Shown: positions 722 to 20,627, counted from the stretch's first letter. The stretch: DNA of 64,000 nt from Actinomycetota bacterium (GCA_947448865.1 CANFOW010000001.1:4845-68844), one strand, 5' to 3'. The notes: generated from the sequence alone by a model not told the origin. Program-made: numbers and translations.

Positions 722-765
722 ACCAAAATCAAGGTTTTGGTTTATTTTTGGTTTAGACCAGAAAA
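722..765. promoter_or_regulatory. Candidate operator: two adjacent inverted repeats built on the ACCAAAA/TTTTGGT half-site, in a divergent promoter region
   Basis: ACCAAAA-TCAAGG-TTTTGGT (722-741) is a perfect 7-bp inverted repeat. TTTTGGT-TTAG-ACCAGAAAA (746-765) is imperfect. Another ACCAAAA copy lies at 819-825 and a further palindrome AACCG-N7-CGGTT at 848-864. No cognate regulator is identified. Confidence 0.3.
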
Positions 766-940
766 TGCCCGATTTCATTGGCTCATTGGTCCGCAGGGAG
801 TGCCGAAACCACAAGACAACCAAAACACCTTCAAGAAATAATCCGAAAACCGTTGTTGTCGGTTGCAGTTTGTGGCAGTGTGCCTAGCAATGTGTGACAC
901 GCATCACCGCTGGGGTGGTGCCAAACGAAAGGGTCGCCAA

Positions 941-2533: not shown

Positions 2534-2545
2534 AAGTTAAACAAC

Positions 2546-2586
2546 CGAATAGGGGTGTGAGGCAATATGTCTCACACCCCTATTCG
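2546..2586 (+). terminator. Perfect 16-bp stem / 9-nt loop hairpin after the permease gene
   Basis: CGAATAGGGGTGTGAG (2546-2561) pairs base for base with CTCACACCCCTATTCG (2571-2586). It starts 13 nt after the stop codon. No clear U-tract follows (ACTTTA), so its terminator strength is uncertain. Confidence 0.5.
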
Positions 2587-2603
2587 ACTTTAGGAGAGAC
2601 ATC

Positions 2604-3641: not shown

Positions 3642-4075
3642 TGCCACGTGTTGAACGAATGGAAATTGATCTCGCACTTGCATTAGCAATGATTGAAGCT
3701 GCAACTGCAAAAGCCCGCGAAATAAACGCGCCTATGTCGATTGCCATTCTCGATGCTGGCGCAAACTTACTTGCCTTCCATCGCATGGATGGCGCTGAAC
3801 TTGCTGGTCCAAACTTAGCTATCGACAAGGCGTACACATCAGTTACCAATCGCATCGAGACTGGAGACCTCAAGTCCCGCGTTGCCCCAGACGGTGACTT
3901 GCCTGGCATGTTCGCGAATGGCAACGGACGCTACATTGCATTTGCCGGCGGTATCCCTTGCTGGGATGGCGACCGTGTCGTTGGCGCTATCGGCGTTAGC
4001 GGCGGATCGTGGGACGAAGACCAAGTATGTGCACAAGCAAGTATCACTGTGTTTGAAGCAGCGGCTCGCGCATGA
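3641..4075 (+). CDS. GlcG/DUF336 (PduO C-terminal-domain-like) putative heme/cofactor-binding protein
   Basis: Motifs AILDAGANLLAFHRMDGA, AIDKAYTS and GAIGVSGG..DEDQ. The start ATG shares one base with the upstream stop (TAATG). The track's longer ORF (3425) overlaps the formamidase gene in another frame. Confidence 0.8.
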   Translation: MPRVERMEIDLALALAMIEAATAKAREINAPMSIAILDAGANLLAFHRMDGAELAGPNLAIDKAYTSVTNRIETGDLKSRVAPDGDLPGMFANGNGRYIAFAGGIPCWDGDRVVGAIGVSGGSWDEDQVCAQASITVFEAAARA

Positions 4076-6300: not shown

Positions 6301-6659
6301 TGCCACAAGGATTTTCTGGAAAAGATTCCAATGAAGTATCAGTTGATGCAATTCGCAAAGGTGAAGTCACTATTGATGATGTGCGCATTCATCCAGACAC
6401 ACTCGAACATCAGGCAACTGTTGCTGGCGAACATGGGAATGCTCAACTAGCAGCGAACTTCCGACGAGCTGCGGAACTGACTCGCATGACTGATGAATAC
6501 GTGTTGTCTCTGTATGACGCCTTGCGACCAGGCAGATCCACTCATGACACGTTGCTTGAGTACGCCCGCGACCTTGAAGCAGCCGGAGCGCCGTTAAATG
6601 CAGAACTGTTCCGACAAGCAGCTTCTGCCTACCAGCGCCGCGGATTAACTGCACAATAG
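6300..6659 (+). CDS. pduE: Diol/glycerol dehydratase small (gamma) subunit
   Basis: DDVRIHPDTLEHQA...NFRRAAELT...LYDALRPGRST...LEYARDLE matches the PduE core. GTG at 6300 overlaps the upstream TAG (TAGTG), with GGAGG at 6288-6292. The track start at 6258 lies inside the alpha-beta gene. Confidence 0.85.
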   Translation: MPQGFSGKDSNEVSVDAIRKGEVTIDDVRIHPDTLEHQATVAGEHGNAQLAANFRRAAELTRMTDEYVLSLYDALRPGRSTHDTLLEYARDLEAAGAPLNAELFRQAASAYQRRGLTAQ

Positions 6660-6663
6660 CCAT

Positions 6664-8295
6664 ATGACTGTTATCGCCGGTGTCGATATCGGCAACTCCA
6701 CTACGGAAATTGTGCTGAGCATTGACGGTCAACCACGCGCCTGGGATCGACGCCCAACCCGTGGACACAAAGGATCACTGGCAAGTGTGCAAGCAGCTGC
6801 CGCACTGCTGCGAGCCGTCGAACGCACGAGTGGACTAAACGCCGATGTTGTGGTTGTTGCACCATGGCAACCTGTCACAAGTGACACTGCAACTATTCAT
6901 GAAGCACCGCCTTTCACTGGTCGTTTTGCCATCATTGATTGCGCGAGTCACAGTGTCGTCGGAAATTCGCATGCAATCGGTGTGCCTTGGCTCGTAACAG
7001 AGCCTGCAACACCGGAAAGTGATGTCATCGCGCTTGTTCCATCCGCAATGGACTTTGCGACAGCTGCTAATACTTTGACGAGCGCGCACGATAATGGCGT
7101 ACGCATTGTTGGAGTGGCAGTTGAAAACGATGAAGCGGTATTAATTTCGGCGCGAGTTACGTTTAACGCCCCCATTGTGGATCGCATTGCTATTTCAGAC
7201 TTAGCTTCGGCTACTCAGATATTTTTAGAAGTGCGTCCCGCTGGTTCTGGCGTGACTACCGCAACAGATGTGTGGGCACTCAGTTCGGCTTTTAATGCGG
7301 CTGATCAGGAACGGGATTACTTGGCGCACATTGCTCGCTGGGTATACGGGGAACGCGCCGTCGTTCTTGCTGCGTTTCCTGAAAGCAACGCACTTCCCAT
7401 ACAACCTGAAGTCGCTCGCGTCCATACACACGACGGAGGTTGGCAGGAACTTTTTGGCCTTGTCGATAACCAATTGCACGTAAACGCAGTTGATGCGATT
7501 GCGCTTCCTGATCACGGCGAAAACACAGTGAGCGATTTGTGGGCGGTTGACGTCACGGCAAGTTTGCGCAGCCGTGGAATCCGAACCCGTTCTCACTCAC
7601 GAACCATTGCGGTAGCAACGTTGGCCGACTCACCTGCAGTTCCAAGTCAAAACCTTGCAGAAATATTTGGAGTACCCGTTCGAACTGTTCACTCCGAAGC
7701 CTCAGCTGCCGCACAAGGCGCTCGCACTACTCCGGGTATTTCGCAGAATGCAGTCATCATCGACATTGGTGGCGGCACAATCGACTTAATAGGCGATGCT
7801 CCACTGGTCGCAGCAGGTGCGGGCGACTTACTGACAGCCGCTGTGGCATTCGCGATTGATGTGCCACGAGGCGCAGCCGACTGGATTAAGCGCGGACCTG
7901 CCCAACGAGTCGAGGCACCAACTGTTGTCCTCACCGAAGATGGGGCAAAAACCTTTGTTGACCAACCCATCCCAGCACCACTGACTGGCTCGCTGGTTGC
8001 CCAAGGGCCAAGTGGCTTCCTATCTTTTGGAAGTACGTTGTCGCCAGCCGAATGGCGCATCGCTCGGCAAGGTCTCAAGTCATCAGTGCTTGCAGCCAAC
8101 GTGCACAGACTTATTGCGAGCACACAGTTAACCCAACCCGTTGACGTGATTGTTGTTGGTGGGCCAGCTGCCGACGATGAACTCATCCCACTGCTCAGTC
8201 AATTACCGAGTCTTGGCAATGTTGGTCGGGGTAATGTGGCAGGCGTACTAGGTCATCGCTATGCAGTGGCATTTGGTTTGACCCTGAGCATCTGA
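6664..8295 (+). CDS. Diol dehydratase reactivase (reactivating factor) large alpha subunit
   Basis: IAGVDIGNSTTE N-terminus, IIDIGGGTIDLIG, AGAGDLLT, VVGGPAADDE and GRGNVAGVLGHRYAVAFGL are collinear with PduG/DdrA. The protein is 543 aa versus ~610 in enteric homologues. Confidence 0.85.
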   Translation: MTVIAGVDIGNSTTEIVLSIDGQPRAWDRRPTRGHKGSLASVQAAAALLRAVERTSGLNADVVVVAPWQPVTSDTATIHEAPPFTGRFAIIDCASHSVVGNSHAIGVPWLVTEPATPESDVIALVPSAMDFATAANTLTSAHDNGVRIVGVAVENDEAVLISARVTFNAPIVDRIAISDLASATQIFLEVRPAGSGVTTATDVWALSSAFNAADQERDYLAHIARWVYGERAVVLAAFPESNALPIQPEVARVHTHDGGWQELFGLVDNQLHVNAVDAIALPDHGENTVSDLWAVDVTASLRSRGIRTRSHSRTIAVATLADSPAVPSQNLAEIFGVPVRTVHSEASAAAQGARTTPGISQNAVIIDIGGGTIDLIGDAPLVAAGAGDLLTAAVAFAIDVPRGAADWIKRGPAQRVEAPTVVLTEDGAKTFVDQPIPAPLTGSLVAQGPSGFLSFGSTLSPAEWRIARQGLKSSVLAANVHRLIASTQLTQPVDVIVVGGPAADDELIPLLSQLPSLGNVGRGNVAGVLGHRYAVAFGLTLSI

Positions 8296-8306
8296 ATCGA
8301 GGAATT

Positions 8307-9905
8307 ATGTCGACAACTGTGTGGCGAAATGGATCCGTGTGGATTAGCGCAGGACAAAGCACGCATGCACTTGCAGCTCGCGATGGCGTCATCGTGGCAC
8401 ATGGCGATGATGCACTCGCACTCATCGACCAAGCACATGACGTGATTGACCTAGATGGCAAGACTCTCGGTCCTGGCTTCGGAGATGGCCACGCACACCC
8501 TGTGTTCGGTGGAATTGAAACTTTGTTTGCGCCCGTGCGAGGACATGACACTCTGGAACATTTACTCGCGGCAGTAAAAAAGTGGGCAGACGAGAATCCC
8601 GATGCAGAATGGGTACGCGGCGAAGGGTACGACCCCAGCTTGGCGCCCCGTGGCGAGTTTGACGCGAAGTGGTTAGACGACATCGTCCCAGATCGTCCCG
8701 TTGTTTTACGCGGAATGGATTACCACACAGCATGGGTTAACACTGCGGCGTTAGAGCGAGCAGGAATTACCGGAAGCACGCCGCAACCTATTGATGGCGA
8801 CATCGCAATGCGTCCCGACGGTACTCCGATGGGAACGCTTCGTGAATGGGGTGCGTGGGGAATGGTGTACGACTTACTCCCGCCGCTAAGTAAAGAACAA
8901 CAAATCATTGCAGTTCAAGCGGCCTCTGCTGCCTTTGCTAGTTGCGGTGTGACGTGGGCGCAGGATGCGTGGGTTTCACCTGAGACGTTGGATGCGTGGC
9001 TTGCAGGTGCTCACGCAGGTGTGCTGACATTCCGCGCAAACCTGGCATGGCTTGCAGAACCCGAAGGTAAATGGCGCGATGCATTTCCCACTTTCAGCGA
9101 ATTCAAAGCTTGCGTTGATCGCGAAGCTCCCGAGTTGCTCACAGGTGGCACCATCAAGTTTTTCGCCGACGGTGTACTTGAAGGTGGCACTGCGGCAGTT
9201 CTCGAACCCTACTGTGACTGCCCTACCTCACACGGAATTCCAAACTGGCGTCGAGAAGAGCTCATTGAAGCTGTCGCGGAATGTGTTGCACTCGGTTTCC
9301 AGCCTCACATTCACGCAATCGGTGATGCGGGTGTGCGCAATGCGCTCGACGCATTCGAAAACGCCATTGCAATCCACGGAACTGCTAACAACCCGATCAT
9401 GGCGCACTGCCAACTTGTTGATGAGCAAGACATGGATCGGTATCGCGAACTCGGTGTGATTGCGAACTTCGAACCGTTGTGGGCTCAGTTAGAAGCCGAG
9501 CAAACTGTTTTGACGATCCCACGTTTGGGCCAAGAACGTGCTGACCGGCAATACCCGATTGCTACCCTGTTGCGTTCTGGTGCAAAAGTTTCGTTTGGCT
9601 CCGACTGGCCAGTGACTAGCCCCGTTCCTATGCAAGGAATCGGTATTGCAGTCACGCGTACCACAGATCATGGTGTTGGACCGTGGGTCCCGAGCGAGTG
9701 CCTGACTCTTGATGAAGCGCTCACCGCCTATACATATGGAGTTGCCGTACAAGCAGGTGAAACCCAGGCCTGGGGAGACCTCGCCATTGGCAAACGCGCT
9801 GATGTCGTGTTGTTTGATACTGACATTCATTCCGTTACGCCATTTGATTTGCGTAAGGTTGGCGTTTTAGGCACGTGGCTTGGTGGCAAACGGGTCTTCG
9901 GTTAG
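8307..9905 (+). CDS. YtcJ-like metal-dependent amidohydrolase (Amidohydro_3 type)
   Basis: GFGDGHAHPVFGG metal-binding HxH motif, HIHAIGD and a C-terminal GSDWPV block, with typical length. Confidence 0.75.
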   Translation: MSTTVWRNGSVWISAGQSTHALAARDGVIVAHGDDALALIDQAHDVIDLDGKTLGPGFGDGHAHPVFGGIETLFAPVRGHDTLEHLLAAVKKWADENPDAEWVRGEGYDPSLAPRGEFDAKWLDDIVPDRPVVLRGMDYHTAWVNTAALERAGITGSTPQPIDGDIAMRPDGTPMGTLREWGAWGMVYDLLPPLSKEQQIIAVQAASAAFASCGVTWAQDAWVSPETLDAWLAGAHAGVLTFRANLAWLAEPEGKWRDAFPTFSEFKACVDREAPELLTGGTIKFFADGVLEGGTAAVLEPYCDCPTSHGIPNWRREELIEAVAECVALGFQPHIHAIGDAGVRNALDAFENAIAIHGTANNPIMAHCQLVDEQDMDRYRELGVIANFEPLWAQLEAEQTVLTIPRLGQERADRQYPIATLLRSGAKVSFGSDWPVTSPVPMQGIGIAVTRTTDHGVGPWVPSECLTLDEALTAYTYGVAVQAGETQAWGDLAIGKRADVVLFDTDIHSVTPFDLRKVGVLGTWLGGKRVFG

Positions 9906-9920
9906 ACCAGAATCAGCATT

Positions 9921-10604
9921 GTGGAACTAACTCCAAGCGAACTTGATCGGTTGCTGATTTTCAGTGCAGCACAGCTTGCAGAGTCTCGTCGTGCTCGAGG
10001 TACGAAACTCAATCACCCTGAAGCGACTGCACTGATAGCGAACGCTGTTATCGAAGCAGCTCGTGATGGTGCCACACATGCGCAAGCAATCCACGCGGGT
10101 GTGAATGCGGTATCACCGGATGAATTACTTGACGGAATCGACTCGATGTTGTCTGGCATCAGTGTCGAAGCAGTGTTCAATGATGGACGGCGTTTAGTCG
10201 TGATTGATTTCCCCAGTAATTCCGATTCTTCGACACCGGGTTCGGTTACTCGCCTAGTTCAACAATCAGAATTGCAGTCAGATGATCTTGTGACATTAGA
10301 TGTGCACAACAATTCCACAGTCGACATTTCCGTGACTACACACATGCACTTTTTTGAAGTGAACCCGCGACTTATTTTTGATCGTGAAGCAAGTTACGGT
10401 CGCCATCTTTTTATTCCTGCAGGTGAGCATGTTGATTTCCCGGCAGGTCAAACAACGAGCGTGACTCTTGTTCCCATAACAGGCAACCGAATCATTATCG
10501 GGTTCGCAGGCCTTGTCGATGGTCCGCTTGATGCACCTGGTGCTCGCGAAGAAGCTATGCGTCGAGCCCGTGAACTTGGTTATCTCTCAGGAGACAAGTC
10601 ATGA
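9921..10604 (+). CDS. ureAB: Urease gamma-beta fusion subunit homologue
   Basis: MELTPSELDRLLIFSAAQLAESRRARGTKLNHPEA matches the UreA N-terminus. HMHFFEVNPRLIFDR and GNRIIIGFAGLVDG match UreB. GTG start. Confidence 0.85.
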   Translation: MELTPSELDRLLIFSAAQLAESRRARGTKLNHPEATALIANAVIEAARDGATHAQAIHAGVNAVSPDELLDGIDSMLSGISVEAVFNDGRRLVVIDFPSNSDSSTPGSVTRLVQQSELQSDDLVTLDVHNNSTVDISVTTHMHFFEVNPRLIFDREASYGRHLFIPAGEHVDFPAGQTTSVTLVPITGNRIIIGFAGLVDGPLDAPGAREEAMRRARELGYLSGDKS

Positions 10605-12271
10605 GTGAGCAGGACATTGCAGTTCATGGTGCACGTGCCGGCGACTTTGTGCGTCTTGGCGATACGCATCTTGTTGTCCGAGTTGAAGCAGATGATCGCC
10701 AACGCGGGAATGAACTTCAAATTGGTTTTGGCAAGAACGCTCGTGACGGCATTGGCATGCAATCTATTCGCCCAAGTAAATCGTGTGATGTTGTCATTAC
10801 CAACGTGCTCGTGATTGATGCAGTACTTGGAATTCGAGTCACAAGTATCGGCATTAACGAAGGTCGAATTAGCGCCATTGGACGTAGCGGAAACCCAGAC
10901 ACGATGGACGACATCGATGTCGTAGTCGGAAGTGGCACCGTCATCATCCCGGGCGAGGGACTCATCGCAACAGCGGGCGGAATTGATTCGCATGTTCATG
11001 CAATGGCACCTCGGGTCTGCGACGCAGCGCTCTCGAGCGGTGTGACAACGCTGATTGCCCAGGAGTTTGGGCCTTTTTGGGGCGTCGGAGTTGGGTCCAA
11101 ATGGGCACTTGGGCATGGGCATAAACAATTTGCAGCCTGGCCATTAAACGTCGGCATCCTCGGTCGAGGAGCTGGTTCAACAACTGATCCGCTTTATGAA
11201 GCACTCGAGGGTGGTGTCTGCGGATTCAAAATCCACGAAGACACTGGCGCGCATCCTCGCACGCTTGATACGACGTTGAGTTTCGCAGACGAACATGACG
11301 TCGCGGTGGCATTACATACTGATGGTCTTAACGAGATGATGCACGTTGAAGACACCATTGCTGCGATTGCTGGTCGTGCTGTGCATGCATATCACGTTGA
11401 AGGTTGTGGTGGAGGCCATGCGCCGGATGTTCTTCGACTCGCAGGACACAACAACATTTTGGCTAGTTCAACAAATCCGACATTAGCTTTCGGTATTAAT
11501 GCGGCTGACGAACATGTGGCGATGATTATTTCTGCGCATGGAATGAATCCTGAACTCCCTAGTGACATCGAGCTTGCGCGTCGTCGAGTGCGCAATGCCA
11601 CGATGGCGGCTGAAAATAAATTGCATGACATCGGCGTGATTCCTGTGACTTCCTCTGATGCACTCGGCATGGGTCGCGCAGATGACACATGGCGTAAGAC
11701 TTTTGCGATGGCCAGCATGTTTGCCGATCGCGCAATCCTCGATGGAACTGTTGCGCCTGATGATGTTGTTATCGAAAACGAGCGCGTACTTCGACACATT
11801 GCAAAAATTACAATCAACCCCGCTCTGGTACATGGCCTGAGCCACGAAGTAGGTTCACTGCAAGTCGGATTGCTCGCTGACATTGTGTTGTGGCCGTATC
11901 GCTCATTCGCCAGTAAGCCCAACATGGTCATCAAGTCTGGAATTCCGGCATGGGGTGTTGTTGGCGATCCAGGATCAACAGTTGCCAATGCACAACCTTT
12001 AACTATTAGCGCGCAGTTCGGCGCATTTGGAGCAAGCGCTGCTGAACTCGGCGTTCACTTCACTAACGCTATGAGCACCACGACTGTCGAAGGTAGACGC
12101 AGCGTGCCAGTCAAGAACACTCGCACAGTTCGCGGCACAGACATGGTGCGCCACGGAGTCCTTGGCACAATCGATGTCGACGTCCACGATTACACCGTGC
12201 GCTTCAATGGCGACATCGTCACATGTAACCCACTCAGCGAATCTCCACTAACCCGAAAGTATGTGTTGTAA
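10601..12271 (+). CDS. ureC: Urease alpha-subunit homologue; metal ligands conserved, active-site flap divergent
   Basis: GGIDSHVH (HxH), GFKIHEDTG (carbamylated-Lys position), ALHTDGLNE, HAYHVEGCGGGHAPD, SSTNPT and TSSDALGMGR (Asp ligand). The canonical MVCHHL flap motif reads IISAHGM. ATGA overlap with ureAB. Confidence 0.85.
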   Translation: MSEQDIAVHGARAGDFVRLGDTHLVVRVEADDRQRGNELQIGFGKNARDGIGMQSIRPSKSCDVVITNVLVIDAVLGIRVTSIGINEGRISAIGRSGNPDTMDDIDVVVGSGTVIIPGEGLIATAGGIDSHVHAMAPRVCDAALSSGVTTLIAQEFGPFWGVGVGSKWALGHGHKQFAAWPLNVGILGRGAGSTTDPLYEALEGGVCGFKIHEDTGAHPRTLDTTLSFADEHDVAVALHTDGLNEMMHVEDTIAAIAGRAVHAYHVEGCGGGHAPDVLRLAGHNNILASSTNPTLAFGINAADEHVAMIISAHGMNPELPSDIELARRRVRNATMAAENKLHDIGVIPVTSSDALGMGRADDTWRKTFAMASMFADRAILDGTVAPDDVVIENERVLRHIAKITINPALVHGLSHEVGSLQVGLLADIVLWPYRSFASKPNMVIKSGIPAWGVVGDPGSTVANAQPLTISAQFGAFGASAAELGVHFTNAMSTTTVEGRRSVPVKNTRTVRGTDMVRHGVLGTIDVDVHDYTVRFNGDIVTCNPLSESPLTRKYVL

Positions 12272-13267
12272 ATGTCCTATCGTGTACACGCTCAAGGAAC
12301 TGGTGCTCAACGCGGCGCCCAACTCGGCGAACAGTTCATTGAGGCACTGCCTCGAGCGTGGGATCGCTGGGTTGCGCACTTTGAAACTAACAACGTTGAT
12401 CCGCATGATTTAGCTGACCGACTCACTCGAGTAGGTGCCTGGGACACTGCCCGCAAGCACCTTCCCGACCTCGTGGACGAACTTGAGGCAATGGCGCACG
12501 CAGCCGGAATGCCGTGGCACAAGGTGGCCGCACTGTCGATGCTCGATGAGTCGTGGGCGTTAACGGGTGGAATGGCGTGTACCTCTATTGCAATCACACG
12601 TGACGGTGTTCGCGTTGCGGGACAAAACATGGATTTACCCGCCTGGACTGACACCATGCAAACCGTTCTCAATGTGAAAGATGCCAACGGACTCGGGGTG
12701 GTTGCAGCCACTTACCCTGGCTCGCTTGCGACATGTGGAGCGAACTCACAAGGTGTGGTTGTCATAGTTAATGCACTCGACCTGGCAACGGACATGAACG
12801 GTATGCCAGTGGATTTCGTAACCCGAGGTGCTTTGCATCATGACACAGCCGCCGATGCCATTGCCTTTATTCGCAGCATTCCGAATGCTGTCGGCCAGAC
12901 CTACACCGTGCTCGATGCACACGACCTATTTATGGTCGAAGCTGCGGCCGATGGCGTCATCGACGTACCGTTACACGAGGTTGTTTCAGTGCACACCAAC
13001 CACGCATTCACACGCGACCATGACATTTCAGAAAGTTCAATCACCCGCCTGACCGCAATTGAATCAACTCGAAGCTCGTTAACGTCTAGAGAGGCTCTCG
13101 AAGCATCTCTGACAAACAAAGAATCTGGCGTATGCCAAGTCCTGGGTCGATTCACTGCGGACATGTACTCGTTTATGGGCGTTCTTGGCGATTCACTTGA
13201 GCGTCGGGTCTGGGTAAATGTGTCACCTGCCACAGGTGGGCTATTCGAGGAAGTTTCATTTCTCTAA
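12272..13267 (+). CDS. Peptidase C45 / acyl-CoA:6-aminopenicillanic-acid acyltransferase-like Ntn hydrolase
   Basis: GTGAQRGAQLGEQF N-terminus and a candidate nucleophile Cys103 in GGMACTSI. This is the position of the autoproteolytic Cys in the family as I recall it. The gene starts directly after the ureC stop. Confidence 0.65.
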   Translation: MSYRVHAQGTGAQRGAQLGEQFIEALPRAWDRWVAHFETNNVDPHDLADRLTRVGAWDTARKHLPDLVDELEAMAHAAGMPWHKVAALSMLDESWALTGGMACTSIAITRDGVRVAGQNMDLPAWTDTMQTVLNVKDANGLGVVAATYPGSLATCGANSQGVVVIVNALDLATDMNGMPVDFVTRGALHHDTAADAIAFIRSIPNAVGQTYTVLDAHDLFMVEAAADGVIDVPLHEVVSVHTNHAFTRDHDISESSITRLTAIESTRSSLTSREALEASLTNKESGVCQVLGRFTADMYSFMGVLGDSLERRVWVNVSPATGGLFEEVSFL

Positions 13268-13284
13268 GGTCATAGGCTCTAGCC

Positions 13285-14535
13285 ATGGCAAATACTGATG
13301 TTCAGGTCACCGTCATTGGTGGCGGCGCTGTTGGTCGAGCAACTGCATGGCAGCTCGCAAAAGAAGGAATCAAGGTTCGAGTCGTTGACTCCGGTGAACC
13401 GCGTTTTGGAACTTCAATGGCAAATGCCGGTTGGGTTGCTCCAAGTCACATCATTCCTTTTGCGGCCCCAGGCATGGTGTCGATGGGTGTTAAAGAGCTT
13501 GTAAAGCGTTCAGGTGCCTTCGGGGTGTCACCTGCTGCGGGACCATCGCTGGCATCATGGACTTTGAAATTTATGCGTGCCTGCACGATGGAACACGTTG
13601 ATCGCAATGCGCCCGCACTTAACGAGTTGCTCCAACGCAGCATGGGCCTTTTTGATGATCTCATTGTGAACCATGGTTTGCGACGCACCGAAAAAGCGTT
13701 GTACTACATTTTTTCCTCAGATCGTGCCGAGGAACTTGCTCATGAAGAACATGACCTTTTTACAGATCATGGTGTTGCAACAAAACTTGTTGACGTTGAA
13801 TCTGCCCGCAGCGATCTTCCTATCCTTAAAGACAGTGTTAAAGCAGTACTCGAACTCACAACGGACTACGGAATTGATCCACGTCGCTTTGTGAACTTAC
13901 TCGGCGAACTCAACACCGGTTCGGGCGTGGAATACCGCACTGGCGAAACTGTTAAGAATGTTGTTCATCGTGCTGACTTAGTTCATGTCACAACGGATAA
14001 AGATTCCTGGACAAGTGATTACGTTGTTCTTGCTGCTGGCACATGGTCGGGTGAAATTGCGAAAATGGTTGGCTCGTCCTTGAGCATCATTGCAGCTAAG
14101 GGCCATTCTGTGACTCTGCCCAACATGACCAACATGCCCGATCGCCCCATGATGCTTGCCGAGCAACGTTTAGCGACTAACCCCGAAGCAAACGGCTACC
14201 GCATGAGTACTGGCTTTGCTTTAACGTCAAATAACGATCGCTCAATTAATCACAAAGCAATCGACAAGTTGTACGCAACCGCGAGTCAGGTTCTTCATTT
14301 GCCTGAGCGTGCGGCAAACATTGAGCCGTGGACCGGACTACGACCAGCCAGTCCCGATGGCCTGCCTTACATTGGACCGCTGGCCAACGCCCCACGAGTG
14401 ATTACCGCAACTGGTCACGGCATGATCGGCAACATGTTGGCACTTGGCACTGGCGCCGTAGTAGCCGACATGGTGCAAGAACGTCCGATATCAGGAGAAA
14501 TGCTTAAGTTCTCACCTTCTCGACCAAGTGCATAG
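13285..14535 (+). CDS. FAD-dependent oxidoreductase (DAO / D-amino-acid dehydrogenase-like)
   Basis: N-terminal Rossmann motif VTVIGGGAVGRATAWQLAKEGIKVRVVD and a C-terminal GHGMIG motif. Confidence 0.75.
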   Translation: MANTDVQVTVIGGGAVGRATAWQLAKEGIKVRVVDSGEPRFGTSMANAGWVAPSHIIPFAAPGMVSMGVKELVKRSGAFGVSPAAGPSLASWTLKFMRACTMEHVDRNAPALNELLQRSMGLFDDLIVNHGLRRTEKALYYIFSSDRAEELAHEEHDLFTDHGVATKLVDVESARSDLPILKDSVKAVLELTTDYGIDPRRFVNLLGELNTGSGVEYRTGETVKNVVHRADLVHVTTDKDSWTSDYVVLAAGTWSGEIAKMVGSSLSIIAAKGHSVTLPNMTNMPDRPMMLAEQRLATNPEANGYRMSTGFALTSNNDRSINHKAIDKLYATASQVLHLPERAANIEPWTGLRPASPDGLPYIGPLANAPRVITATGHGMIGNMLALGTGAVVADMVQERPISGEMLKFSPSRPSA

Positions 14536-14564
14536 GGCATTATTGCTTTATCGCCCCACACCTG

Positions 14565-15650
14565 ATGCAAAGGATTTCTGTGACTAATTCGTTCCTGAAC
14601 ATTGCCAACGTCAGCAAAGCATTTACGACCCCCGAGGGTGGCACAGTCCACGCTCTTGATGATGTTTCGCTAGACATTCGAGAAGGCGAATTCTTCGTCA
14701 TGCTTGGCCCATCAGGCTGCGGTAAGACAACGCTGCTTCGTTCTATTGCTGGACTTGAATACCCAGACAGCGGTGTCATCACACTTGATGGCCAGCGCAT
14801 TGATGATTTGCCTGCATACAGCCGACCAGTTAACACTGTGTTCCAGTCATACGCACTGTTTCCACACATGACTGTTGGGCAGAACATCGCGTTTGGTTTG
14901 GAAATGGAAGGCATAAATAAAACCGAAACTGCCAAGCGAGTTTCCGATGCTCTTGATCAGGTATCACTTTCTGGATTAGACAAACGTAAGCCCAGCCAAC
15001 TTTCTGGTGGTCAGCAACAACGCGTTGCGCTGGCTCGTGCATTAGCTAAGCAGCCGAAAGTTCTGCTACTCGACGAGCCACTGAGTGCATTGGATTTGAA
15101 ACTTCGTCGTGGCATGCAAATTGAACTCAAGCGACTTCAGCAACAAACCGGAATCACATTCGTTTTCGTCACCCATGATCAAGAAGAAGCAATGTCGATG
15201 GGTGATCGCATTGCGGTATTTAAAGATGGAAAAATTGTTCAACTTGATACACCGCAAGAAATTTATCGTCGCCCAGTAAATAGTTTCGTCGCAGACTTCA
15301 TCGGTGAAACAAACTTGCTCGATGGAATTGCTACTGCTGATGGCGTACAAGTTCCTGGTGGCGGATTCATCGCCCGGTCCGTTATCGCATCCGATTGTGT
15401 AGTTCCCGCGTCTGGCTCAGTCACGATTGCGATTCGACCTGAAGACTTGAAGATAAGTGATGGCTCAGGTTCATTAAAGGGAATTGTCCGCGATGTGATC
15501 TTTACTGGTGAAACGGTGCGAGTACACATTGACCTTGGAACCACTGAAGTGGTCGCCCACTTACCGTCTTACGGAGTTCGCGTTCCTGACCGCGGTGAAA
15601 CCGTAAGCTTCTCGCCACTAGATCAGTCCGCTCGCACGGTGGCCTCATGA
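14565..15650 (+). CDS. potA: PotA-type ABC transporter ATPase (spermidine/putrescine-import family)
   Basis: Walker A GPSGCGKTT, signature LSGGQQQRVALARAL, Walker B LLLDEPLSALD and a C-terminal TOBE-like region. An alternative GTG start at 14580 has a better SD (AAGGA). Confidence 0.85.
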   Translation: MQRISVTNSFLNIANVSKAFTTPEGGTVHALDDVSLDIREGEFFVMLGPSGCGKTTLLRSIAGLEYPDSGVITLDGQRIDDLPAYSRPVNTVFQSYALFPHMTVGQNIAFGLEMEGINKTETAKRVSDALDQVSLSGLDKRKPSQLSGGQQQRVALARALAKQPKVLLLDEPLSALDLKLRRGMQIELKRLQQQTGITFVFVTHDQEEAMSMGDRIAVFKDGKIVQLDTPQEIYRRPVNSFVADFIGETNLLDGIATADGVQVPGGGFIARSVIASDCVVPASGSVTIAIRPEDLKISDGSGSLKGIVRDVIFTGETVRVHIDLGTTEVVAHLPSYGVRVPDRGETVSFSPLDQSARTVAS

Positions 15651-16549
15651 GCAAAATAGTTCGTGGTCGCCCCGGACAAACCAGTCCCTGGCTAGCAATT
15701 CCAACAATTGCTTACCTATTCCTGACTATTGGTATTCCACTTTTCATCACGGTTGTCTACTCGTTCTTGCAACGGGCAAAAATTGGAATGGGCGTCACCT
15801 GGCACTTCTCGCCTAAGGCGTACAAGGACCTCTTTATCCTAGAAAACCTTGACGGCACAACAACTTTTGATACCCGTTACGTCAAAGTGCTCTGGCATTC
15901 ATTCCAATACTCAGCAGTAACTACTGTGGCAACCGTAGTGCTCTCAATTCCTATTGCGATGTGGATTGCAACGCGAAACGAAAGCACTCGCAATATTTTG
16001 GTCGCCGCAGTCACGTTGCCATTTTGGATTAGCATCCTGATCAGAACATATGGTCTGCGTCAGATTATTGATGACAATGGTCCCATCGGTTGGATTGCTC
16101 ACAAGCTGGGTTACGAGAATTTCCACATCATTTACACACCAATTGCGACAATGATTGGTCTGACCTACGTATTTTTACCGTTCATGATTCTGCCGATTTA
16201 CGCTAGCGCAGAACGATTTGATTTCAGACTCGCAGAAGCTGCCTATGATCTCGGGGCAAAGCGATGGACCGTTTTCCGTCGCATTGTGTTTCCATCGATT
16301 CGCCCGGGCGTGATTGCTGGAATTGCCTTGGTGTTTATTCCGGCACTGGGTTCGTTCCTGCAGTCCGACATGCTCGGTGGTGGCAAGACAAACATGATTG
16401 CCAACGTGATTGCGCTGAACTTCACGCAAGCGCGTAACTGGCCATTTGGTTGCGCACTGTCAGTTCTGCTGATTTTGCTCACGCTTCTCTTGGTGCAAGC
16501 TATCCGATTGATATCCAAGAAGTTCGGAGATCAGGTGAGCTTGGTATGA
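15647..16549 (+). CDS. potB: PotB-type ABC transporter permease
   Basis: Six-TM permease with an EAAxDLGA-type loop (AEAAYDLGAKRWTVFRRIVFP). ATGA overlap with potA. Confidence 0.8.
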   Translation: MSKIVRGRPGQTSPWLAIPTIAYLFLTIGIPLFITVVYSFLQRAKIGMGVTWHFSPKAYKDLFILENLDGTTTFDTRYVKVLWHSFQYSAVTTVATVVLSIPIAMWIATRNESTRNILVAAVTLPFWISILIRTYGLRQIIDDNGPIGWIAHKLGYENFHIIYTPIATMIGLTYVFLPFMILPIYASAERFDFRLAEAAYDLGAKRWTVFRRIVFPSIRPGVIAGIALVFIPALGSFLQSDMLGGGKTNMIANVIALNFTQARNWPFGCALSVLLILLTLLLVQAIRLISKKFGDQVSLV

Positions 16550-17349
16550 GTTCAGTAAAGACGCGCAAGCTTGTCAATCTGAGAAACTTCCCGACATTTC
16601 GTCCGGTGTCTTGGTTTGTGTTGTTTTTCTTGTACATCCCATTGGTGCACGTCATTGTGTACTCGTTTAACTCAAGTCGTATCGCAACAATTTGGGAGCA
16701 CTTCTCAACGAAGTGGTACTTCAAAACCTTCCACAATGACGACATGCAACGCGCACTCAAAAACTCTCTCAAGATTGGTTTCGCTGCCACAATCTTGTCG
16801 ACGGTCTTGGCTGTTCTTGCGGCGCTTGGCTTAGTTCGGATGCGTCGGCTCGGTTCAGCATTTGCGTGGAGCCTCATTGGTGCACCGCTGATCATCGCTG
16901 AAATCGTGTTGGCTGTGGGAACACTTGGATTCTTCATGGCAGTGCACATTCCACTGGGAATCTTTGGCATGGTGCTCGCTCACACCGCATTTTGTATTCC
17001 ATTTGCACTTTTGCCTATCCGCGCACGTCTTGGGCAACTTGATGTGGCGCCATTTGAAGCGGCGGCTGACCTCGGGGCAAATGAACGACAAATTTTGCGC
17101 CGGATTACGTTGCCGTTATTGTCGCCAGCCATTGTTTCTGGGGCTTTATTGGCATTTGCGATCTCGATTGATGACTTTATTACGTCATTTTTCATCTCCG
17201 GACCAGGGTCAACCACCCTTCCGGTTTACATTTTCGGCATGATCCGTTCGACAGTGACACCAGAAGTGGACGCAATATCCACACTGTTGCTGCTGTTCTC
17301 TGGCATTGTGTTGATTAGTTCCTACGTTCTCAACCGAAGAAGGAGATAA
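16546..17349 (+). CDS. potC: PotC-type ABC transporter permease
   Basis: FEAAADLGANERQILRRITLP loop. ATG at 16546 forms an ATGA overlap with the potB stop. The track start at 16450 lies inside potB. Confidence 0.8.
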   Translation: MSSVKTRKLVNLRNFPTFRPVSWFVLFFLYIPLVHVIVYSFNSSRIATIWEHFSTKWYFKTFHNDDMQRALKNSLKIGFAATILSTVLAVLAALGLVRMRRLGSAFAWSLIGAPLIIAEIVLAVGTLGFFMAVHIPLGIFGMVLAHTAFCIPFALLPIRARLGQLDVAPFEAAADLGANERQILRRITLPLLSPAIVSGALLAFAISIDDFITSFFISGPGSTTLPVYIFGMIRSTVTPEVDAISTLLLLFSGIVLISSYVLNRRRR

Positions 17350-17352
17350 ACA

Positions 17353-18477
17353 ATGGGAAACATCAAGAGGCGCCGTGCCTCCTACGCCGCTGCAATCGCT
17401 GCGGCAACAGCACTGTTATTGACCGCATGTGGAGGTTCGTCCACTTCCGGTACACCAACTGCTGCAGACACATCCGCCGCTTTCCCAACATCGGGTTCCG
17501 GTGAAGTTCACCTTTACAACTGGACCGATTACATCGACCCTGAACAGCTCACAGCGTTCACAGCCGAGACTGGCATCAAGGTAATCCTTGACACGTTCGA
17601 CAGCAATGAAACACTGCTTGCGAAACTGCAATCAGGTGCCACAGGCTACGACGTTGTTGTTCCGTCTGACTACATGGTTGCGCAAATGATTGAACTGAAT
17701 CTTCTTCAGAAGGTTGAGCCAGCAACATTCCCGAACGGTAAGAACATCAAGCCAAACTTGCTCAATGATATTTATTGGGATGCAGGACGTCACTACTCTG
17801 CTCCATGGATGTACGGCACAACTGGTATCGCATGTAACACCACTGCAGAACCAAAGTGCGCAAACATCAAGTCATGGCACGATTACTTCACCGCTGGTCT
17901 TCCAAAGATGGATTCACTCAAGGACCAAGTTGAAGTTGTTTCTGCTGCATTACGTGCAACAGGTGTGGCTCCTGCTGATTTGTGTACCACTGATAAGTCG
18001 AAGTATGCAGCAGCAGCTGACCTACTTAAGGGCTTCAAGCCTGCCGTGATCGATTCCGACAGTGGTATCGAACGAGTTATTGCTGGTACCAGCAACGTGC
18101 GTCACGCCTGGAATGGATCAACTCACCGCATGAAGGATAAAGTTCCTGGCGTTGAATATATCTACCCATCAGAAGGTTTGAACCTTTGGGCAGACAACTT
18201 AGTTGTTCCCGTAGGCGCTCCAAACCTAGACAACGCAAAGATCTTCATCAACTGGATGATGGATCCTGCACACGCTGGCGCTGAAAGTAACTTCTCTGGT
18301 TACGACAACGGCATCACCGGTTCAGATGCGTTCATGAGCGACTCGTTGAAATCAGACCCAGCAGTTGTTGTGCCAGCTGATAAGACTGCGCTCATCTCTG
18401 CAGTTCCTCCATGTGGCCAGGACGCTCGCGACCTGTACACCCAGGTATTCACTACTTGGTTGGGCGAACAGAACTAA
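17353..18477 (+). CDS. potD: PotD/PotF-type polyamine-binding lipoprotein (copy 1)
   Basis: Lipobox LLTACGG, then the YNWTDYIDP and SGATGYDVVVPSDY motifs of the PotD/F family. Confidence 0.8.
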   Translation: MGNIKRRRASYAAAIAAATALLLTACGGSSTSGTPTAADTSAAFPTSGSGEVHLYNWTDYIDPEQLTAFTAETGIKVILDTFDSNETLLAKLQSGATGYDVVVPSDYMVAQMIELNLLQKVEPATFPNGKNIKPNLLNDIYWDAGRHYSAPWMYGTTGIACNTTAEPKCANIKSWHDYFTAGLPKMDSLKDQVEVVSAALRATGVAPADLCTTDKSKYAAAADLLKGFKPAVIDSDSGIERVIAGTSNVRHAWNGSTHRMKDKVPGVEYIYPSEGLNLWADNLVVPVGAPNLDNAKIFINWMMDPAHAGAESNFSGYDNGITGSDAFMSDSLKSDPAVVVPADKTALISAVPPCGQDARDLYTQVFTTWLGEQN

Positions 18478-18486
18478 TTTCGATAC

Positions 18487-18526
18487 AAAAGTGGAGCCTC
18501 ACCTCAGGGTGGGGCTCCACTTTTTT
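18487..18526 (+). terminator. Rho-independent terminator
   Basis: AAAAGTGGAGCCTCACC-TCA-GGGTGGGGCTCCAC is a GC-rich stem with one mismatch, followed by TTTTTT. It starts 10 nt after the potD stop. Confidence 0.75.
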
Positions 18527-18560
18527 GCCCTCAAGGCACACTGTGCTCCATAATCCTTAA

Positions 18561-19625
18561 GTGCAAAAAGTGATGTTGCGTAGCGCCCTGAGCGCCATCC
18601 TCGCCTTAACAATGACTGCCTGTGGCGGGTCAAGTGACCCAGTAGCCACAACATCCAATGAACTCCACGTGTTCAACTGGACCGATTACATCGACCCAAA
18701 TGAAGTCAAGCGTTTTGAAAACGAGACTGGTATAAAAGTCATCCTTGATGTGTATGACAGCAATGAAACGTTGCTTGCAAAAATTCAATCCGGTGCGACT
18801 GGCTACGACATTATTTTTCCTGCGGACTACATGGCAGAACAAATGCGTGAACTCAACTTGCTTGAGCCAATTGACGTAGCGAAGTTACCCAATGGAAAAA
18901 ACATCATGCCGTCAATGATGGATGTGTATTGGGATCCAGGTCGCGTGTACACGGCGCCTTACATGTACGGAACTACGGCGATTGCTTGTAACCCCATTGA
19001 TACTTATTGCCCGACAATTAAATCGTGGCATGACTTTTTCACGACAAAAGACCCAAAGGTCAGCGTCCTGAAAGATGAAATGGAAGTTGTGTCCGCAGCA
19101 CTTCGCGCAGTCGGAGTGGCAGGAAATGATTTGTGCACGACTGACAAAACAAAGTTCCAAGCTGCAGAAGATTTGTTGCTTGGTTTCAAGCCGGCAATTA
19201 TCGAGTCCGATGGTGCGACCGAACGCATGCTCAATGGCACTAACACTTTGGAACATACGTGGAACGGTGAAGTGCATCGTATGCGTCCACAAATTCCAGA
19301 CATGATTTACATCTACCCAACTGACGGTGCGAATTTGTGGGCCGACAACATCGCAGTCCCAGTAGGTGCTCCCCACCTTGAAAATGCCAAGACTTTTATT
19401 AATTGGTTAATGGATCCCAAAAACATTGCTGCCGAAAGTAATTTCACTGGCTATGACAACAACATCGTTGGCTCGGATGCATTTATGGATAAGTCAATTC
19501 GACAAGATCCTGCTGTGATTCCACCTGCAGATGTTGTCAGTCGCCTCTCGCCAGCTCCGAACTGTCCGCAAGAAGTTCGGGATATGTACACCCAAGTATT
19601 TACGACCTGGACGTCAAGCCAATAG
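18561..19625 (+). CDS. PotD/PotF-type polyamine-binding lipoprotein (copy 2, tandem paralogue)
   Basis: Lipobox LTMTACGG. By eye it is roughly two-thirds identical to copy 1 (FNWTDYIDP, SGATGYDIIFPADY, KSWHDFFT, FTTW). The start could be GTG 18561 or ATG 18573. Confidence 0.8.
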   Translation: MQKVMLRSALSAILALTMTACGGSSDPVATTSNELHVFNWTDYIDPNEVKRFENETGIKVILDVYDSNETLLAKIQSGATGYDIIFPADYMAEQMRELNLLEPIDVAKLPNGKNIMPSMMDVYWDPGRVYTAPYMYGTTAIACNPIDTYCPTIKSWHDFFTTKDPKVSVLKDEMEVVSAALRAVGVAGNDLCTTDKTKFQAAEDLLLGFKPAIIESDGATERMLNGTNTLEHTWNGEVHRMRPQIPDMIYIYPTDGANLWADNIAVPVGAPHLENAKTFINWLMDPKNIAAESNFTGYDNNIVGSDAFMDKSIRQDPAVIPPADVVSRLSPAPNCPQEVRDMYTQVFTTWTSSQ

Positions 19626-20502
19626 CAGTATCGAGTACTGCTTGAGTGCGGCGCGTGGGACGCGCTGAGTCAAGAGTCATTGCGACCACATGAGCTGGCG
19701 GAATGTCGTCCTTAATGTCAAGCATGACAAAAGTATGACCATCCACAGTTGTGTTATGAGCCGGACGCATGTTGAGAAGTGCAACGCCCATTCCGCGAGC
19801 AACAAGCGCTCGAGCGAGTTCGGTACTACCTGTGCGATAGCGAATGTGCGGTTTAATCCCAGCTTCGTGAAAAACGCGCTCGAAATAATCTCGACTATGC
19901 GGTAAATCAAGTAGCACAATCGGCTCGTCCGCGATATCGTGCAATCGGATTGACGTGCGATGTGCCAAGCGATGTTGCGTGGGAACAACAACGTGAGCTG
20001 AAACATCAAAGAGACGCTGCACGCGAACAGCAGACGCGCGTCCAAAGTCATAACCCAAACCAATTTCAAAGCGACCACTGATCAAACCATCATTAAGTTC
20101 CGGCAAGCTCACTTCCTCAATACGTACTTCAAGATCTGGGAAATCACGCGCCAGCGCAAAAAGCAACTCAGGAACTAGATAAGGAGCAATGACACTGTAA
20201 ACACCAACGGAAATCGCACCGACGGGCGAACTACCCAGGTCGCGTGCATCTTGCTCCAACAATTCAGCATCATCGAGCATGGCTCTGGCTTTTACGAGTA
20301 AGCGCTCACCGGCGTGAGTAAGACTCACACCCTTGGCATGGTGACGTACGAGAAGCTGCAAACTGAGCGCTTTCTCGATTTCGCTGATGCCACTCGACAG
20401 CGTGGATTGCGACACATGAAGGGCAAGCGCTGCCCCGCTGACGGAGCCATACTCTGCGACAGCAACGAGGTACTCAAGTTGGCGAAGTGTGTATGACGGC
20501 AT
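19600..20502 (-). CDS. LysR-family transcriptional regulator
   Basis: MPSYTLRQLEYLVAVAEYGSVSGAALALHVSQSTLSSGISEIEKAL is a textbook LysR wHTH, followed by an effector-binding domain. I prefer the ATG at 20502 over the track's 20595. Confidence 0.85.
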   Translation of the reverse strand: MPSYTLRQLEYLVAVAEYGSVSGAALALHVSQSTLSSGISEIEKALSLQLLVRHHAKGVSLTHAGERLLVKARAMLDDAELLEQDARDLGSSPVGAISVGVYSVIAPYLVPELLFALARDFPDLEVRIEEVSLPELNDGLISGRFEIGLGYDFGRASAVRVQRLFDVSAHVVVPTQHRLAHRTSIRLHDIADEPIVLLDLPHSRDYFERVFHEAGIKPHIRYRTGSTELARALVARGMGVALLNMRPAHNTTVDGHTFVMLDIKDDIPPAHVVAMTLDSARPTRRTQAVLDTAIGLTSRS

Positions 20503-20543
20503 GTGTGGAGTGTATCGAAGCAATCGAACTTGGTTTTGCATTA

Positions 20544-20560
20544 ATTCGACTTGTCCGAAT
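20544..20560. promoter_or_regulatory. Candidate LysR box (T-N11-A within ATTCG-N7-CGAAT dyad)
   Basis: ATTCGACTTGTCCGAAT lies in the 125-bp divergent region between the LysR gene and the ridA-like operon. Confidence 0.35.
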
Positions 20561-20627
20561 AGGCGTCCAGTCCGATAATCTTGCCTGAGAGGCACCGTAT
20601 CGTGGCAGCTGAACTAGAAGGACACTC

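Follow-up and report, generated by a model that had tools for sequence, protein, structure and literature searches.

A urease homologue without neighbouring accessory genes in a freshwater actinobacterium as a candidate carbamoyl-amine hydrolase

Ureases are the standard example of dependence on a dedicated GTP-dependent nickel-insertion machine. The di-iron UreA2B2 of Helicobacter mustelae (3qga) and the UreABC of Bacillus subtilis are reportedly encoded by structural genes without ureDEFG, their scaffold being metallated without dedicated chaperones; UreA2B2 also has a fused gamma-beta subunit, and both are true ureases with canonical pockets. The present study concerns a ureAB-ureC gene pair in a 64,000-nucleotide stretch of DNA from an Actinomycetota bacterium (GCA_947448865.1, CANFOW010000001.1:4845-68844), hereafter the window. 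An earlier interpretation made from the sequence alone (the sequence-only reading) had described the pair as a urease homologue of non-canonical type, lacking accessory genes in its vicinity and set in a genomic context that does not point to urea, a main thrust that is upheld here. It had also mentioned accessory-less ureAB-ureC pairs in streptomycetes, which is right as a gene arrangement, orphan ure(AB)C pairs without accessory genes being recognised in Streptomyces at the gene level and uncharacterised (PMC5489568). Of further relevance is N-carbamoylputrescine, the product of the agmatine deiminase AguA; this compound is known to be consumed only by AguB/NCPAH, an enzyme of the nitrilase type, and by putrescine carbamoyltransferase (PMC13625781, PMC9397018). 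The results presented below suggest, with even confidence, that the enzyme encoded by ureAB-ureC derives from urease, hydrolyses N-carbamoylputrescine or a similar carbamoyl-amine and matures without help from UreDEFG.

Open reading frame (ORF) calling and Pfam/NCBIfam profile scans of the window, with curated thresholds applied, confirmed the genes and their domains at 9921-12271, where the sequence-only reading had placed a urease homologue:

9921..10604, + strand: ureAB-like gene, fused gamma-beta subunit of 227 aa, GTG start
10601..12271, + strand: ureC-like gene, alpha (catalytic) subunit of 556 aa, ATG start, a member of the short-loop clade described below
10589..10604, + strand: translational coupling site, an AGGAGA Shine-Dalgarno-like motif (10589-10594) followed by the ureC ATG, which overlaps the ureAB TGA (ATGA)

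The ureAB product contains the Pfam domains Urease_gamma (residues 1-98; 107.6 bits against a cutoff of 23.9) and Urease_beta (residues 121-201; 84.7 against 25), and the ureC product contains Urease_alpha (111.4 against 23) together with Amidohydro_1, all three urease domains passing their cutoffs. In addition, ureAB passed the NCBIfam model NF009671 'bifunctional urease subunit gamma/beta' (254.9 against 243) and could be aligned over its full length with H. pylori UreA (1e9y_A). The ureC product passed the NCBIfam subfamily model NF009686 alone (624 against 354) and scored below every urease equivalog cutoff (TIGR01792, 543 against 680; NF009834, 520 against 1001; NF009685, 507 against 907). 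Its identity to solved ureases is 39-45%, below the level typical of characterised ureases, and sources annotate the protein as 'urease subunit alpha'. The AlphaFold model of ureC (predicted local distance difference test score, pLDDT, 67; predicted template modelling score, pTM, 0.75; active-site loops below 50 pLDDT) resembles urease alpha chains at a TM score of 0.83-0.86. The pair thus shares with the canonical nickel ureases of Klebsiella aerogenes, Sporosarcina pasteurii and Yersinia (2kau, 4ubp, 6yl3) the gamma, beta and alpha domains, the fold, the ligand set (HxH, carbamyl-lysine, His, His, Asp) and the catalytic His219, Asp221, His320 and Arg336, while it differs from them in its sub-equivalog scores, in lacking adjacent ureDEFG and a urea transporter, in its clade and in the pocket.

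The differences in the pocket became apparent when the alpha subunit was aligned to UreC of K. aerogenes (Ka; 1fwa, the C319A variant) and checked in larger alignments. The relevant segments of ureC, all on the + strand, are as follows:

10976..11011, + strand: GGIDSHVHAMAP, HxH ligands His131/His133 (Ka His134/His136), invariant in 113 clade members
11060..11098, + strand: QEFGPFWGVGVGS, rewritten loop with a 4-residue deletion, which replaces the canonical GGGTGPAxGTNATTCTPG and introduces the invariant Gln154/Glu155
11222..11260, + strand: GFKIHEDTGAHPR, with Lys210 (Ka Lys217, carbamylated), His212 (Ka His219) and Asp214 (Ka Asp221) kept, and Trp222 changed to Thr215, Thr225 to His218 and Ala227 to Arg220
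11306..11335, + strand: VALHTDGLNE, metal ligand His239 (Ka His246)
11384..11428, + strand: HAYHVEGCGGGHAPD, ligand His265 (Ka His272), with Ala276 changed to the clade-invariant Cys269
11522..11593, + strand: mobile-flap region MIISAHGMNPELPSDIELARRRVR, catalytic His313 (Ka His320) and Arg329 (Ka Arg336) kept, Cys319 changed to Ala and His321 to Gly
11648..11677, + strand: TSSDALGMGR, ligand Asp353 (Ka Asp360), with Ser361 changed to Ala, Gln362 to Leu and Ala363 to Gly356

All metal ligands are retained, as the sequence-only reading had held, and the motifs it quoted (GGIDSHVH, GFKIHEDTG, ALHTD, TSSDALGMGR, HAYHVEGCGGGHAPD and the short flap motif IISAHGMNPELPSD) are all present and were mapped to the DNA; the change it reported from KIHEDWG to KIHEDTG is seen in the alignment as Trp222 to Thr215. 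Its description of the flap as rewritten holds for Cys319 and His321 but not for the catalytic flap His320 (His313) and Arg336 (Arg329), which are retained, and its stress on the flap was partly misplaced, the deletion in the urea-binding loop, which it had not seen, being the more telling change. The replacements of Ala276 by Cys and of Ala363 by Gly likewise go beyond that reading. In terms of motifs, the canonical urea pocket is altered from HEDWG to HEDTG, from MVCHH to IISAHG and from DSQAMGR to SDALGMGR, and the GTNATTCTPG loop is shortened by four residues. Nine replacements at positions that are invariant in seven canonical sequences and different in the clade (G157Q, G158E, T165V, W222T, T225H, A227R, T273V, A276C and A363G) are at least 95% conserved within the clade. 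In solved ureases, the backbone carbonyl of Ala167, which lies in the canonical loop (residues 164-173 in K. aerogenes), binds urea. As judged from the alignment, the changes are concentrated at urea-contacting or pocket positions, namely the loop deletion, W222T, A276C and A363G together with the new charged or polar residues.

To place these changes in the urease family, comparison sets were drawn from a search of 1.84 billion 50%-identity representatives, 120 closer homologues, genome loci and plasmid loci, and a Kimura-distance neighbour-joining tree was built from a limited sample with 100 bootstraps. Canonical ureases (K. aerogenes, P0127, P0129, L039 and L044) were split from the short-loop group in 100/100 bootstraps, and the clade of the window, including a Kribbella member (58% identical), was monophyletic, also in 100/100. 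The loop deletion is common to all short-loop members and was present in none of the canonical ureases examined. The short-loop group also lacks Trp222, and most members lack Cys319 and His321, while the ligands are all kept; position 363 is Gly in all members except three plasmid copies linked to nonribosomal peptide synthetase (NRPS) genes. The sequence-only reading had considered that the protein might fall inside ordinary ureases, with the flap differences as lineage noise, and both the fully supported separate clade and the sub-equivalog scores speak against this. By these comparisons, the window protein is a member of a deep, distinct and uncharacterised short-loop branch of the urease family. 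Furthermore, ten catalytic positions showed no variation across 113 full-length homologues (59-92% identical) or across 11 further, more distant short-loop representatives, indicating that the enzyme is under selection as a catalyst.

Among the 50%-identity representatives, full-length urease-alpha-like proteins that have lost most metal ligands and the carbamyl-lysine were also observed (P0143, P0158, P0160, P0169, P0173, P0195, P0217, P0229 and P0241); these apparent pseudo-ureases form a third group, to which the window protein does not belong. The orthologues at 75-91% identity came almost all from freshwater actinobacterial metagenome-assembled genomes, many of them labelled Candidatus Nanopelagicales, and the GC content of the window (~50%) fits the upper range reported for Nanopelagicales (PMC12817590). 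A full-text literature search, with most subscription journals outside its coverage, found no paper on the short-loop clade, on a Nanopelagicales urease or on a urease-type N-carbamoylputrescine hydrolase.

The maturation genes were searched for with UreD, UreE, UreF and UreG probes taken from canonical loci in the scan and validated with Pfam. As the sequence-only reading had stated, none occurs in the window: tblastn and six-frame phmmer gave no match at E<=10, and Pfam scans of the 38 window ORFs, including those of UreD/E/F/G size, revealed no accessory family. Among 38 genome loci of relatives, with up to 10 kb covered on each side, only noise was obtained (E>=0.09); three plasmid loci gave a single match at E=0.1 and the 80 metagenomic loci no match at a 1e-8 cutoff, such that in ~140 loci (flanks up to 7-10 kb on each side) no accessory gene was found beside the short-loop pair. 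In canonical loci, by contrast, ureE-F-G-D (L041 and L042) or ureF-G-D (L039) directly follow ureC. The clade as a whole is therefore marked by a lack of adjoining accessory genes. Maturation without UreDEFG would be mechanistically plausible, because other carbamyl-lysine amidohydrolases, such as dihydroorotase, hydantoinase and phosphotriesterase, self-assemble with CO2 and metal. With respect to the accessory-free ureases, 3qga_C of UreA2B2 was no closer to the window protein than the nickel ureases (415 against 454 bits).

Several genes with a possible link to metals were inspected. The window encodes the nickel superoxide dismutase SodN (39303-39773), beside which lies a SodX-like S26 peptidase gene (38970-39284, - strand), indicating that the cell acquires and uses nickel. 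A P-loop ORF at 32019-32591 was rejected as UreG, as its cobW/HypB/UreG score was 19.8 bits against a cutoff of 20.7 and it adjoins PnuC; it more likely encodes a nucleoside or nicotinamide-riboside kinase than a metallochaperone. A MeaB-type GTPase of the G3E family (the superfamily of UreG, HypB and CobW) was observed immediately upstream of ureAB in L055 (8180-9139) and L056 (61-1020), and 2.3-3.9 kb upstream of ureC in six syntenic loci (L071, L074, L075, L077, L078 and L081). A role as a UreG substitute was not adopted, since it passes the MeaB equivalog and its pattern resembles lineage synteny, which is probably what its proximity reflects. In L054 (a 1.085-Mb contig), a CsoR-type repressor, two HMA metallochaperone-like genes and a P-type ATPase (6288-9201) lie divergently and directly upstream of ureAB; these genes probably serve copper homeostasis, and their position is probably coincidental.

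Clues to the substrate of the pair come from its relatives. The AguA family (PF04371) was examined in genome loci and in a separate metagenome scan of 80 loci at 58-80% identity, and the following placements were found in genome loci:

L054: AguA-family gene directly downstream of ureC, passing the AguA equivalog TIGR03380 (538 against 381.8)
L057: AguA-family gene directly upstream of ureAB
L059 and L060: AguA-family gene adjacent, divergent
L058: pair divergent from a full operon of a putrescine-carbamoyltransferase-like gene, permease, AguA and carbamate kinase
L032 (Kribbella): AguA-family gene adjacent, divergent, with two further paralogues in the locus
L040 (Baekduia, 46% identity): AguA-family gene adjacent, divergent

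The AguA-linked members of the fully supported clade of the window are ~60% identical to the window protein. An AguA-family gene was also found in 26 of the 80 metagenomic loci or, counting just the 57 loci whose usable flank reaches 1.5 kb or more, in 23. It lies on the same strand within 230 nt downstream of ureC in 14 of these 26 loci and just upstream of ureAB in five, is divergent in one and lies at 2-3.7 kb in six, giving direct adjacency in 20 loci and four arrangement classes. The metagenomic loci are partly related to each other, and after dereplication at 90% identity an AguA-linked member remained in 14 of 50 clusters. Moreover, in L118, L122 and L136 the ureAB-ureC-AguA trio stands amid unrelated housekeeping genes, and no nitrilase or carbamoyltransferase was detected in the ten flanking ORFs scanned, so that the step consuming N-carbamoylputrescine is otherwise missing locally. 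The sequence-only reading had offered a different metal, spontaneous maturation or hydrolysis of a substituted urea or amide as possibilities for this copy; it is the substituted urea that gains comparative-genomic support from the recurrent AguA adjacency.

Other links to polyamine metabolism were also found. In Solirubrobacteraceae loci (~45% identity), a divergent carbamoyltransferase-permease-carbamate kinase set is present, with no AguA beside the urease genes, and the transferases scored 455-470 bits with the putrescine carbamoyltransferase model against 341-362 for ornithine carbamoyltransferase. In Kribbella L032, genes for a class-III aminotransferase, alanine dehydrogenase and aldehyde dehydrogenase come after ureC, and a PotA-type transporter lies ahead of ureAB; in L099, a PotD-like gene is directly upstream of ureAB. 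The agmatine-deiminase-family paralogues of Kribbella sp. NPDC056861 (L032; 1607-3226, 7967-9133 and 17595-19013) are all under the AguA equivalog cutoff, and the presence of three might hint at deiminases for several guanidino substrates.

In the window itself, profile scans of the neighbours confirmed that the pair is flanked by amidohydrolases and not by a urea transporter, as had been read from the sequence:

8307..9905, + strand: Amidohydro_3 (YtcJ-like metal hydrolase; PF07969, 324.7 bits), 15-nt gap to ureAB, upstream of ureAB in most orthologous loci
12272..13267, + strand: C45-family autoproteolytic (N-terminal nucleophile, Ntn) hydrolase/acyltransferase, starting at the very next base past the ureC stop, conserved synteny
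13285..14535, + strand: DAO-family FAD amine/amino-acid oxidoreductase (D-amino-acid dehydrogenase or glycine oxidase-like), conserved synteny
14565..19625, + strand: polyamine-type ABC transporter, conserved synteny, made up of the next three entries
14565-15650, + strand: PotA-like ATPase, passing the TIGR01187 subfamily cutoff (372 against 355.6)
15647-16549 and 16546-17350, + strand: two ABC permeases
17353-18477 and 18561-19625, + strand: two PotD/PotF-like binding proteins, best match PotD/PotF
19600..20595, - strand: candidate LysR-family regulator, convergent with the end of the block and kept in orthologous loci
24760-26247, + strand: aldehyde dehydrogenase
26263-27603, + strand: class-III omega-aminotransferase

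The last two genes lie ~12 kb downstream of ureC, and the same enzyme types follow ureC in Kribbella L032. The order in most orthologous loci is amino-acid permease, FmdA/AmdA-like amidase, HbpS-like protein and B12 diol-dehydratase set, then Amidohydro_3, ureAB, ureC, C45 Ntn-hydrolase and DAO-family oxidoreductase, and finally PotA-type ATPase, two permeases, two PotD/PotF-like binding proteins and LysR. In L022, L023 and L025-L027, only ureAB-ureC is found at the same chromosomal position, with or without DAO. Besides ureAB-ureC, the island holds four other amide hydrolases of unassigned specificity. Structural relatives of the neighbours in the PDB were uninformative, consisting of an 'uncharacterized metal-dependent hydrolase' for Amidohydro_3, a 'putative acetamidase' and distant glycine oxidases, with none for the C45 protein; the contexts of the 50%-identity representatives P0121, P0124 and P0128 were also uninformative, their contigs being 2-4 kb long. 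A scan for riboswitches in the window and four related loci at the Rfam gathering threshold gave tRNAs only, and promoter and terminator scans of positions 1-20000 showed no excess over shuffled sequence, for which reason operon boundaries are drawn from gene spacing.

The module upstream of Amidohydro_3 (863-8295) comprises the permease, the FmdA/AmdA-like amidase, the HbpS-like protein (~3641-4075), a B12-dependent diol/glycerol dehydratase with fused large and medium subunits (4072-6300), its small subunit and a reactivase alpha-like protein. This B12 radical enzyme set, in a genome-streamlined freshwater actinobacterium, always stands beside the amide-hydrolase island. Further downstream, an unusual fusion protein with a flavin-reductase domain joined to a LysR-type substrate-binding domain without a helix-turn-helix (22887-24044) follows RidA, DUF1028 and M20 amidohydrolase genes (20628-22890), and a heliorhodopsin gene is located at 38215-38973 (Pfam PF18761, 327 bits).

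Of the 80 metagenomic loci, 14 also carry an Amidohydro_3 homologue in the sequence flanking ureAB-ureC, with direct adjacency in 11 (Amidohydro_3 neighbours were noted in L068, L070, L085, L090, L094, L096, L103, L111 and L119). These homologues are 28-41% identical to the window gene, against 72% in window-type loci. Since Amidohydro_3 and AguA occur together in one metagenomic locus only, this suggests that Amidohydro_3 is an alternative partner, or first-step, enzyme to AguA. In the alignment, hardly any difference in pocket residues is seen between window-type, Amidohydro_3-linked and AguA-linked enzymes, the common elements being QE-GP-WGVG with the deletion, HED(T/M/L)GAH-R, EGCGGGH and SSDA(Q/L)GMGR, and Thr215 and Leu355 of the window protein also occur among AguA-linked members. 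A carbamoyl-(poly)amine would thus be the most economical substrate for the window enzyme, in view of the shared pocket residues, the AguA-linked relatives and the polyamine-type transporter.

A more distant setting is provided by Streptomycetaceae plasmids (L051, NZ_CP109401.1; L052, NZ_CP108786.1; L053, NZ_CP109047.1; ~1-12300), where the short-loop pair sits in one conserved NRPS-type cluster with the order adenylation, condensation, APH-type phosphotransferase, 528-aa protein (weak B12-binding match), ureAB, ureC and 2-oxoglutarate-Fe(II) oxygenase-like, with no ureDEFG. These copies share the short loop, HEDMGAH and EGCGGGH, and in the tree they join the window clade at moderate support (63/100 neighbour-joining bootstraps). 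The window pair resembles such Streptomyces-type orphan pairs in its fused gamma-beta and alpha subunits and in lacking adjacent accessory genes; it differs from the plasmid copies, to which it is ~50% identical, in that they keep Ala363 and do not lie in a catabolic/transport island. The plasmid homologue appears to have been recruited to natural-product chemistry. A three-gene module shared with the window was considered and rejected, as BLASTP between the window Amidohydro_3 and the 528-aa protein gave E>=1 and the downstream genes are unrelated too.

From the fold, the ligands, the clade separation, the absence of neighbouring accessory genes and the gene associations observed above, we infer the substrate, products, metal and self-maturation of the enzyme as follows. 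It would have the urease fold and a dinuclear centre whose metals are bridged by a carbamyl-lysine, and its assembly would need no dedicated UreD/E/F/G, as with other carbamyl-lysine amidohydrolases; His212, Asp214, His313 and Arg329 would take the roles of Ka His219, Asp221, His320 and Arg336. By analogy with urease, a hydroxide bridging the two metals held by carbamylated Lys210 may attack the ureido carbonyl, polarised by one metal and His212, and the flap His313, together with Asp214 and Arg329, may aid protonation of the leaving group. The products would be NH3 and an N-alkyl carbamate that decarboxylates, or carbamate and an amine, with a net yield of free amine, CO2 and NH3. The shortened Ala167 loop (four residues fewer), Trp222 to Thr and Ala363 to Gly may open room for an alkyl chain or N-substituent, the new invariant Gln154/Glu155, His218 and Arg220 would be part of the reshaped pocket, and the invariant Glu155 is a candidate counter-charge for a distal ammonium group. 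The substrate may be imported by the PotABCD-type transporter or made by the adjacent Amidohydro_3 enzyme, and the released amine might pass to the DAO oxidoreductase and to the aminotransferase and aldehyde dehydrogenase encoded nearby; this link, the roles of the Amidohydro_3, C45 and DAO proteins and the identity of the amine are all putative.

The reaction proposed here, N-carbamoylputrescine to putrescine, CO2 and NH3, is the same as that of AguB/NCPAH of the nitrilase superfamily (PMC13625781, PMC9397018), and AguB/NCPAH and the relatives of the window enzyme also share AguA as a genomic partner. The window enzyme is a dinuclear metallohydrolase of the urease/amidohydrolase type, whereas AguB/NCPAH is a CN_hydrolase thiol amidase with a Cys-Glu-Lys triad; it would thus be a non-homologous isofunctional enzyme. 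Putrescine carbamoyltransferase and carbamate kinase (Enterococcus and others) likewise remove the carbamoyl group of N-carbamoylputrescine, but they are phosphorolytic, ATP-yielding and unrelated proteins. Their homologues adjoin short-loop urease genes in L058 and the Solirubrobacteraceae and are absent from the window.

Several observations weigh against a carbamoyl-amine hydrolase and have to be set beside the rival explanations. AguA, carbamoyltransferase and carbamate kinase genes are all absent near the window and in its 30 closest orthologous loci, and for the window subclade the AguA link is drawn from homology (~60% identity) and the polyamine-type transporter. Neither AguA nor Amidohydro_3 is seen in about half of the metagenomic loci that have usable flank, and a carbamoyltransferase route already exists in L058 and the Solirubrobacteraceae loci, where the hydrolase would therefore be redundant. 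The enlargement of the pocket is read from sequence, the model (pLDDT 67) being poor at the active-site loops; the AguB/nitrilase search covered the flanking ORFs of some loci; and the clade tree is distance-based and drawn from a limited sample. All residues for urea hydrolysis, including His219 and His320, are kept, and activity on urea would be compatible with them. The main rival is a true urease (urea to 2 NH3 and CO2) from a divergent lineage. Its activation would be spontaneous, would rely on accessory proteins from another part of the genome or would involve a metal that is not nickel, and it would finish nitrogen scavenging from urea freed by neighbouring hydrolases or taken up from lake water. 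The invariant ligands and catalytic residues, the identical fold, the source annotation 'urease subunit alpha', the use of nickel by the cell (SodN), the accessory-free ureases known from B. subtilis and H. mustelae (UreA2B2, with 3qga among the structure matches) and the orthologues of L025-L027, which stand alone in streamlined genomes as a self-sufficient urease would, are all in keeping with it. Nevertheless, a deleted or rewritten Ala167-carbonyl loop and further replacements in the pocket run through the whole clade, which separates from all canonical ureases in 100/100 bootstraps; the window protein scores below the urease equivalog cutoffs; no urea transporter and no adjoining ureDEFG accompany the pair in ~140 loci; relatives are embedded in an NRPS cluster; and the recurrent partner, agmatine deiminase, makes no urea. 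A true urease is thus considered unlikely, if still a serious contender.

It is rather improbable that the substrate is another small nitrogen compound outside the carbamoyl-amines, such as formamide, acetamide, a guanidino compound (the enzyme then standing in for AguA as a deiminase) or a product of the Amidohydro_3 and C45 hydrolases, in which case the AguA association would mark a subclade-specific function not shared by the window enzyme. That the partner in the window subclade is Amidohydro_3 and not AguA, with both present in a single locus, would fit such a substrate, as would the four further amide hydrolases of unassigned specificity in the island and the Solirubrobacteraceae loci, where carbamoyltransferase and carbamate kinase occur without AguA and a deiminase role could be vacant; enzymes of the amidohydrolase superfamily also commonly deaminate amidine and guanidine carbons. 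The near-identity of the pocket-lining residues across the three enzyme types argues instead for one substrate class, the AguA-linked trios have no other N-carbamoylputrescine consumer, and the chemistry conserved from urease is ureido C-N hydrolysis. Scarcely credible is a decaying or non-catalytic urease relic left after the loss of accessory genes, for which the ligand-less urease-like proteins (P0143, P0158, P0160 and others) could serve as precedent: none of the 113 sequences, which reach down to 59% identity, has lost any of the ten catalytic residues, both ORFs are uninterrupted and linked by translational coupling, and the synteny is conserved in genome-streamlined bacteria. These conservation data effectively refute a relic.

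Hydrolysis of a carbamoyl-amine by the window enzyme would have consequences beyond a single locus. Slightly short of an even chance is given to the wider proposal that the whole branch, widespread as it is in freshwater Nanopelagicales and in soil Actinomycetota and Solirubrobacterales, is not urease and constitutes a third, non-homologous route for carbamoylputrescine or carbamoyl-polyamines, self-assembling without UreDEFG. Urea use is widely inferred from ureC as a marker gene, and one homologue cluster alone holds 369 member sequences; if the proposal is true, many 'ureC' annotations would be wrong, as would many of the marker-gene counts from which the use of urea in lakes and soils is estimated, and urea-cycling inferences for abundant freshwater bacterioplankton and soil actinobacteria would need correction should the clade act on carbamoyl-amines. 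The proposal is directly testable, with two genes and commercial substrates. It would give the N-carbamoylputrescine step a third solution beside AguB and putrescine carbamoyltransferase, and may explain genomes with AguA but without AguB or PtcA. Furthermore, a sister clade with the same ligands and no accessory genes nearby would reveal the structural basis of chaperone dependence and of the need for nickel, and would, if the proposal holds, represent a natural experiment on how urease specificity and chaperone dependence are encoded.

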